A DNA stretch of 6,885 nt, taken from the IMG/VR virus record IMGVR_UViG_2541047122_000022. One strand, given 5' to 3'. This document shows positions 4,317 through 4,983 of the stretch, piece by piece. A model generated the notes under the pieces. That model worked only from the letters and a program-made list of their open reading frames with translations. It searched no databases and was not told the DNA's origin. Source of the stretch: a virus (lineage: Duplodnaviria; Heunggongvirae; Uroviricota; Caudoviricetes). Each line of letters begins with the position of its first letter. Position 1 is the stretch's first letter. The translations under genes were made by a program, and so were the position numbers.

Positions 4317-4983
4317 GCGGATGGTGCAGGCCTGAAATCATGATACTAACAATGAAGGTAAAATGCATCGGCAGTCTGATTGGTCGTAGTGAGGCGGCGG
4401 TCAGGATGAAAGCCCAGGTTAAGGGAATAAGCCTGATTCTGCGGGGTGATTTTCACCAGTCAACAAAATATCCGTAGCGCGATAACGGTCAAAAATTATG
4501 GCGCTGACACTTTTGTGCCACTGGAGATGACTGTACCTAAGTTCAGGGGAGAAGAACACGTCCGGTGGGATGGTCGGGCCAGATTTAAAGGGCAGGTCAT
4601 GGCTCCAGCCTGTACGCTGGCAATGGAGGCTGCCTGGCGGGAAATTGATATGGGAACCACGCCACTCAGGGATTTACTGCCGGTCCAGAGAATAAATTCC
4701 TGTTACGGTTACACCACTGTGATCTTGCAAGTGCAGGAAAGTAGGTCTACACGGTAACGCGAGTGCGTGTAACTTTTGATGTCATTCCCGTAGAAACACC
4801 GGACAAATTTTCGCTGACAGGTCATGCAGAAGGTATAAATCTGCAGATTATGGACAATTACGGATATCCGGCAAGAGCCGGAAAAAGCATGCCGCCTCTA
4901 ATTCTCAGTGGAAGATGGACTTGATTATACTCATTGCATTGTCAGAAATAGTTATCCATTAAAGGCTGGCTATTCCAAACAGG

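Follow-up and report, generated by a model that had tools for sequence, protein, structure and literature searches.

Several described systems bear on the locus examined here, namely the cargo ('moron') genes inserted into the nin region of lambdoid prophages, the small helix-turn-helix (HTH) proteins of the type encoded by orf90 of phage D6 (phrog_30109), and PapH/PixH, the terminator-anchor subunit of P-type chaperone-usher pili. In Escherichia coli EDL933 the locus constitutes the left part of O-island 57, where paa is designated adfO (z2053) and the hok-like gene ckf (z2054) (PMC8565820; PMC10562709). As in phage moron insertions, a virulence-associated gene, paa, lies with its own AT-rich upstream region between early genes of the prophage, its flanks are mosaic and homologues of it occur on plasmids (PMC8565820); unlike in other moron insertions, part of an unrelated pilus gene is caught in the scar. 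Like the D6 orf90-type proteins, a 54-amino-acid (aa) ORF at this locus sits immediately after a DUF1627 gene, but it is cut by a nonsense codon and a breakpoint, carries a five-codon internal deletion and has lost its C-terminal HTH. The pilus gene fragment retains the 'APAC' and 'C(D/E)L' cysteine motifs of PapH/PixH but, unlike the genes for these subunits, it sits in a prophage between the HTH remnant and paa, outside any pilus operon.

The stretch of DNA analyzed as a whole (6,885 nt, IMG/VR record IMGVR_UViG_2541047122_000022; hereafter the window) covers the early (replication/nin) region of the lambdoid prophage that carries paa/adfO in EHEC E. coli and is known in O157:H7 as O-island 57. 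Its gene order, established from the ORF listing and similarity searches of the window, comprises a CI-like repressor gene on the minus strand (839-1246), cro (1323-1550), the genes for YdaT, a DnaT-like replication protein and replication protein P, in this order, between cro and the DUF1627 gene, the DUF1627 gene itself (3582-4316) directly before two gene remnants, an intact paa/adfO gene for an AcfC-family adhesin on the plus strand (5176-5934; PGAP annotation; Pfam SBP_bac_11, E = 5.5e-34; PMC8565820), hokD/sok on the 3' side of paa and further phage genes. The segment 4200-5180 is 100% identical to the chromosomes of O157:H7, O26, O103, and O111 strains, and 573 of the 5426 complete E. 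coli genomes cover at least 80% of it. The order given by RefSeq (PGAP) is DUF1627, a hypothetical protein of 54 aa, a fimbrial protein (frameshifted; internal stop), paa and hokD, and the label of pilus pseudogene is found in each of the four RefSeq chromosomes inspected.

The DUF1627 gene is itself in a variable state. In the window it is dead by a GAG to TAG change at 3633-3635 (codon 18), in strain E2865 the GAG is kept and a 1-nt deletion at window position 4062 is found instead (annotated by PGAP as 'frameshifted'), and the gene is intact (747 nt) in alleles SJ7 and TB4328. Since these inactivations are independent, they suggest that the early region of the prophage is decaying in several lineages.

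Between the DUF1627 gene and paa, some 600 bp (4320-4920) had been described from the sequence as lacking a convincing gene, with a frameshifted pseudogene or an untranslated RNA as the two explanations on offer. The GC content of this stretch had been called ordinary, and it is (0.47–0.56 over 4300-4900); values of 0.28–0.32 are reached only at 4900-5200, upstream of paa. The region is best explained, with a probability that we put at about 0.93, as a recombination scar within the early region of the paa-bearing EHEC lambdoid prophage, a scar that consists of two dead gene fragments. What the original prediction overlooked is that the first 165 nt are a separate HTH gene remnant and that the whole stretch is a mosaic-junction scar beside paa.

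The first of the two fragments is the 5' remnant of a phage HTH 'DNA-binding protein' gene (4313-4486, plus strand), recognized from phrog_30109, from alignments and from the RefSeq protein WP_001505071.1. The ATG at 4313 overlaps the stop codon of the DUF1627 gene as ATGA (4313-4316), is preceded 8 nt upstream by GGAAG and opens an ORF of 54 codons (4313-4477) which is the RefSeq CDS WP_001505071.1, so that the earlier statement that no ATG-initiated ORF with a ribosome-binding site exists here is incorrect. A longer ORF, 4232-4477, had been dismissed as spurious; this is justified for its GTG-started extension (4232-4312) only, since 4313-4477 is a truncated phage gene, neither a spurious ORF nor a complete gene. 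The 54-aa product matches phrog_30109 (E = 6e-17) at positions 1-41 only of the 61-position profile, shares in its N-terminal half 80–83% identity with E. coli prophage homologues and 57–63% with the 105-aa product of D6 orf90, and keeps the conserved N-terminal motif IGSLIGRSEAAVR.KA. Its place downstream of the DUF1627 gene is also that of its relatives, as related E. coli prophages with the same replication module carry an intact 84- or 93-aa DNA-binding/HTH gene directly after DUF1627.

Alignment at the DNA and protein levels with the intact 84–93-aa genes of the RM13745 and RM10466 prophages and with D6 orf90 (105 aa) reveals in the remnant a 15-nt in-frame deletion (five codons) after 4347 and a premature TAG (4475-4477, plus strand) where both aligned E. 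coli prophage homologues have CAG (Gln); the TAG is unchanged in 43 of 43 IMG/VR copies. Homology to the HTH gene stops at about 4486, 9 nt past this codon, and the C-terminal half of the gene, which in intact relatives gives a weak match to sigma-70 region 4, is therefore missing. Of a protein that is 84–105 aa long with a C-terminal HTH when complete, 54 codons are left.

Among the competing explanations, the one that survives best is that the 54-aa ORF (4313-4477) still works as a truncated regulator, a mini-protein with a single HTH. The ORF has its ATG, is coupled through ATGA to the upstream gene, keeps the conserved N-terminal motif and is a RefSeq CDS; against this, it lacks the C-terminal half found in all intact relatives (including the weak sigma-70 region 4 match), ends at a nonsense codon 9 nt short of the recombination breakpoint, carries a frameshifting insertion in allele TB4328 and would be coupled to a DUF1627 gene that is inactivated in the window (TAG at 3633-3635) and, independently, in E2865. 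A working regulator is for these reasons unlikely, and the ORF is better regarded as one of the two dead fragments of the scar.

The second fragment is a pseudogene of a papH/pixH-type pilus minor subunit (4510-4974, plus strand), identified by blastn, base-level alignment and PGAP, which assigns to its fimbrial pseudogene the span 4482-5015. The fragment corresponds to nt 71-550 of an intact homologue of 588 nt carried on IncF plasmids and is 85–89% identical in DNA sequence to the intact plasmid 'fimbrial protein' genes (blastn E of about 1e-157 to 3e-159), one of which, on plasmid pEB2 of the ETEC strain B7A, is annotated as PixH. These plasmid homologues lie in pap/pix-like operons with a major subunit, an usher and a chaperone. 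The assignment to the pilins rests on homology across the mature pilin domain, at E values that put chance out of the question: the frame-corrected translation of the fragment shares 78% identity with the plasmid PixH-like protein over 159 aa (BLASTP E = 1e-92), the intact plasmid homologue is an orthologue of PapH and matches it (PDB 2J2Z_B) across the whole mature domain with E = 3.6e-81, and the plasmid PixH-like protein matches the Pfam family Fimbrial (PF00419) with E = 1.9e-6.

The damage to this gene is extensive. Its start codon and signal peptide (codons 1-23) are missing, as are its last 38 nt, which encode the C-terminal strand. Within the remaining sequence, a 10-bp deletion (gene nt 238-247) between 4676 and 4677 on the plus strand shifts the reading from frame 0 to frame 2, an in-frame TAG at 4742-4744 (plus strand) replaces the CAG of codon 105 in the intact gene, and a 5-bp deletion (gene nt 482-486) between 4910 and 4911 on the same strand returns the reading to frame 0. 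The homology to pilins accordingly lies in frame 0 at 4509-4676, in frame 2 at 4679-4909 and again in frame 0 at 4911-4974. The two protein-like segments noticed originally in different plus frames (4446-4757 and 4743-4916) agree with the six-frame translation and with the PapH-like homology, and the switch between them is accounted for by the two deletions, of which the first takes the reading out of frame 0 into frame 2 and the second restores frame 0; the remnant runs about 55 nt further than had been seen. The suggestion of a frameshifted pseudogene was thus right as regards 4510-4974, with its two frameshifting deletions, its nonsense codon and both of its ends gone.

Nowhere in 4510-4974 is there an uninterrupted pilin ORF that begins with a start codon and encodes an N-terminal Sec signal peptide. 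The C-terminal beta-strand (...YYAALRFKLDYE in the intact homologue) is also absent, the last 38 nt being replaced by sequence of the paa module from 4975, and neither an usher nor a chaperone gene accompanies the remnant in the window and its flanks, where all genes other than paa and hokD are those of the phage. A pilin cannot be made from this fragment because it lacks a start codon, a signal peptide and a C-terminal strand, two deletions shift the frame, a stop codon interrupts it and no chaperone or usher is encoded nearby. The codon differences between the remnant and the intact homologue (29 nonsynonymous and 20 synonymous) are consistent with constraint having been relaxed for some time, in addition to ordinary divergence.

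Searches for a donor closer than the plasmid genes returned none in the collections covered. Among the complete E. coli genomes, the best match to the remnant reaches at least 95% identity in 577 records, and the next matches are the intact pixH-like genes at 86%; these genomes hold nothing between 86% and 95% identity, and neither an intermediate nor an intact close relative was found in them. In the species representatives of GTDB, protein patterns gave no confirmed match and a conserved 32-mer had no exact match; in IMG/VR, only copies of the same pilin pseudogene were found; and among the best plasmid matches there is no pixH-like gene adjoining paa. The searchable literature on the context of paa, on z2051/z2052, on ECs1770-1772 and on PixH makes no mention of the pilin fragment.

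The age of the lesions was approached by aligning base by base four of the most divergent alleles of the segment (98.3–99.3% identity) and 43 prophage contigs from IMG/VR (98.2–100% identity over 4287-5175). Both deletions and both TAG codons are kept in all four alleles and in all 43 contigs. Private indels are superimposed on this common pattern: a 1-nt insertion at 4442 in TB4328, in which PGAP describes the 54-aa ORF as 'frameshifted'; a 1-nt deletion at 4882 in a record of 15.6 kb; and a 1-nt deletion at 4774 in two viral contigs. As the lesions are common to all aligned copies and some copies have added indels of their own, the lesions predate the spread of the element and the decay continues. 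The ancestor shared by all known copies probably carried the pilin fragment in a dead state already, and the fragment would by now be neutral passenger DNA. The conservation of the segment at 98–100% says nothing on selection, because the element is young.

One strain has lost almost the entire scar. In 2013C-4830 (NZ_CP027325.1, locus 2154-3912), IS2/IS3 replace everything upstream of 4949, and paa and hokD are retained. The remnants are dispensable for keeping paa in this strain. The same loss has removed the immunity genes and the replication genes along with both remnants, so that paa and hokD now adjoin the int/xis end of the prophage.

The junctions between the parental sequences can be placed with some precision. 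Homology to the HTH gene ends at about 4486 and that to the pilin gene begins at 4510, which leaves a filler of about 23 nt (4487-4509) with no detectable homology to either parent. On the other side, the pilin remnant ends at 4974 and the AT-rich region upstream of paa (4975-5175, plus strand; GC 0.28–0.32) forms the start of the paa module, as judged from its homology to paa-like loci of plasmids. This homology, of 85–89% to paa-like 'substrate-binding' loci on many E. coli and E. albertii plasmids, extends from 4975-4990 to near 5994 and takes in the upstream region as well as the coding sequence of the paa-like genes; homology to the hokD loci of other prophages restarts at about 6036-6104. 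An apparent ORF at 4908-5015 ends in a tail ('...YSKQDVDYKNVINM*') that is not derived from the pilin; since homology to the paa module begins at 4975, the tail up to 5015 is paa-module sequence read in the pilin frame. These alignments show a mosaic in which phage backbone leads into one half of an HTH gene, followed by the internal fragment of the pilin gene, the cargo module with paa and phage backbone again.

From this arrangement a sequence of events may be proposed. In the phage backbone, an HTH gene of 84–105 aa normally follows directly on the DUF1627 gene. This resident gene was truncated when the nin region acquired the paa cargo, and only its first 54 codons are left. Fused to the HTH remnant across the filler of about 23 nt is an internal fragment of a PapH/PixH terminator-subunit gene, which abuts the paa module at 4974|4975 and was probably brought in by illegitimate recombination in the course of the acquisition. 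Any transcription of the remnants would then occur by read-through of the phage early operon, and paa would be expressed from a promoter region of its own (4975-5175) that the paa-like loci of plasmids also have.

Two repeats lie in or near the scar. A perfect 12-bp palindrome (4984-4995/5000-5011, ATGTTGATTACA-AAAA-TGTAATCAACAT), about 170 bp upstream of the start of paa, is located at the very start of the module shared with plasmids and is largely conserved there, with 1–3 mismatches; as it has no U-tract, it could be a candidate operator for a regulator of paa. In addition, a perfect 13-nt inverted repeat (AGTCAACAAAATA/TATTTTGTTGACT, 4458-4470/5050-5062) flanks the pilin remnant. Fewer than 0.05 inverted pairs of 13 nt are expected by chance in 951 nt, by a rough estimate. 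An interpretation of this repeat as the termini of an element was considered and rejected, given that each arm is native to its own parent and that in all four divergent alleles 5059 is A instead of G, so that the repeat is broken; it is most likely a coincidence.

The other explanation to be considered for the whole stretch is a functional non-coding RNA, be it a structured RNA, a long 5' leader by which paa is controlled or an RNA from the pilin remnant that acts as antisense or sponge. In its favor, nearly every copy has inherited the segment together with paa, a few promoter-like hexamers occur on the minus strand, and one minus-strand window (4825-4974) folds somewhat better than its shuffled versions, a marginal result (z = -2.47, with 4 of 200 shuffles as good) from a window that is mostly outside the span originally described. 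The remaining tests point the other way. A covariance scan with Rfam 15 at E ≤ 1 gave no match in 4320-4920, the only hits of the whole window being sok and an isrK-like match. When twenty windows of 150 nt were folded on both strands, the plus strand over 4300-4974 gave z-scores of -0.96 to +0.47 against shuffles, and strong signals (z of -2.8 to -4.25) appeared only in windows holding the 4984-5011 palindrome, beyond that span. A scan of 4200-5250 for promoters and terminators showed no excess over shuffled sequence (4 promoter-like sites against 2.5 ± 1.5 and 1 terminator-like site against 0.7 ± 1.0). Private indels also build up inside the region, one strain retains paa after the loss of all that lay upstream of 4949, and the paa-like loci of plasmids share the sequence from 4975 onwards only, which means that the native control region of paa excludes the pilin remnant. 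A functional RNA is on these grounds very improbable, and the untranslated RNA put forward originally as the alternative to a pseudogene finds no support in the Rfam and plus-strand folding results.

A narrower form of this idea is that the pilin fragment, dead as a gene, has been co-opted at the RNA level, either as a long leader coupling paa to early transcription of the prophage or as an antisense or sponge for the papH/pixH mRNAs of co-resident pilus operons. The fragment has identical uninterrupted stretches of up to about 37 nt in common with the intact pilin genes of plasmids. We rate co-option a shade less probable again than a functional RNA in general, and prefer to regard the fragment as debris of the recombination.

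That the pilin gene is truly intact and its frame breaks are artefacts of sequencing or assembly is scarcely credible: a clean full-length homologue in one frame, named originally as the sign of a sequence error that would refute the pseudogene, does exist on plasmids and speaks for this rival, but it is only 86% identical and does not refute the pseudogene, the same 10-bp and 5-bp deletions and TAG recur in four divergent alleles and 43 viral contigs, four of the four RefSeq chromosomes inspected carry the same PGAP pseudogene call, base-calling cannot explain an absent start codon, signal peptide and 3' end, and lesions shared in this way by a stretch present in 573 genomes at a coverage of at least 80% reflect real decay.

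The 600 bp without a gene in this medically relevant prophage are thus recombination debris, which matters little beyond correct annotation and implies no new biology; the finding is in practice already known, because PGAP labels the fragment as 'fimbrial protein; frameshifted; internal stop'. The breakpoints at about 4486, at 4510 and at 4974|4975 mark where the paa cargo was spliced into the phage, and these junctions could be specific markers for this lineage of paa prophages. They also show that some of the DNA of the element came from a PapH-type pilus operon, of the kind that IncF plasmids carry today.

Some additional features were observed on the 3' side of paa. The hok/sok type I toxin-antitoxin system is complete (6123-6425), with the sok RNA (RF01794, 103.9 bits) at 6123-6272 and hokD at 6270-6425; hokD is the 'ckf' marker of O-island 57 and always accompanies paa/adfO. 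Just 3' of hokD, the segment 6434-6515 gives a sub-threshold match to the isrK family of Hfq-binding small RNAs (24.9 bits, where the gathering score is 50; E = 0.031) and may represent a diverged phage small RNA of the isrK type or else a chance match. Finally, comparison of the window with E2865 leaves 6521-6570 unaligned and gives 86% identity over 6571-6885 and 99.5% elsewhere in the window, a pattern from which 6520-6885 appears to hold a further mosaic breakpoint, in or near a 92-aa ORF (6592-6870; phrog_1212, unknown function).
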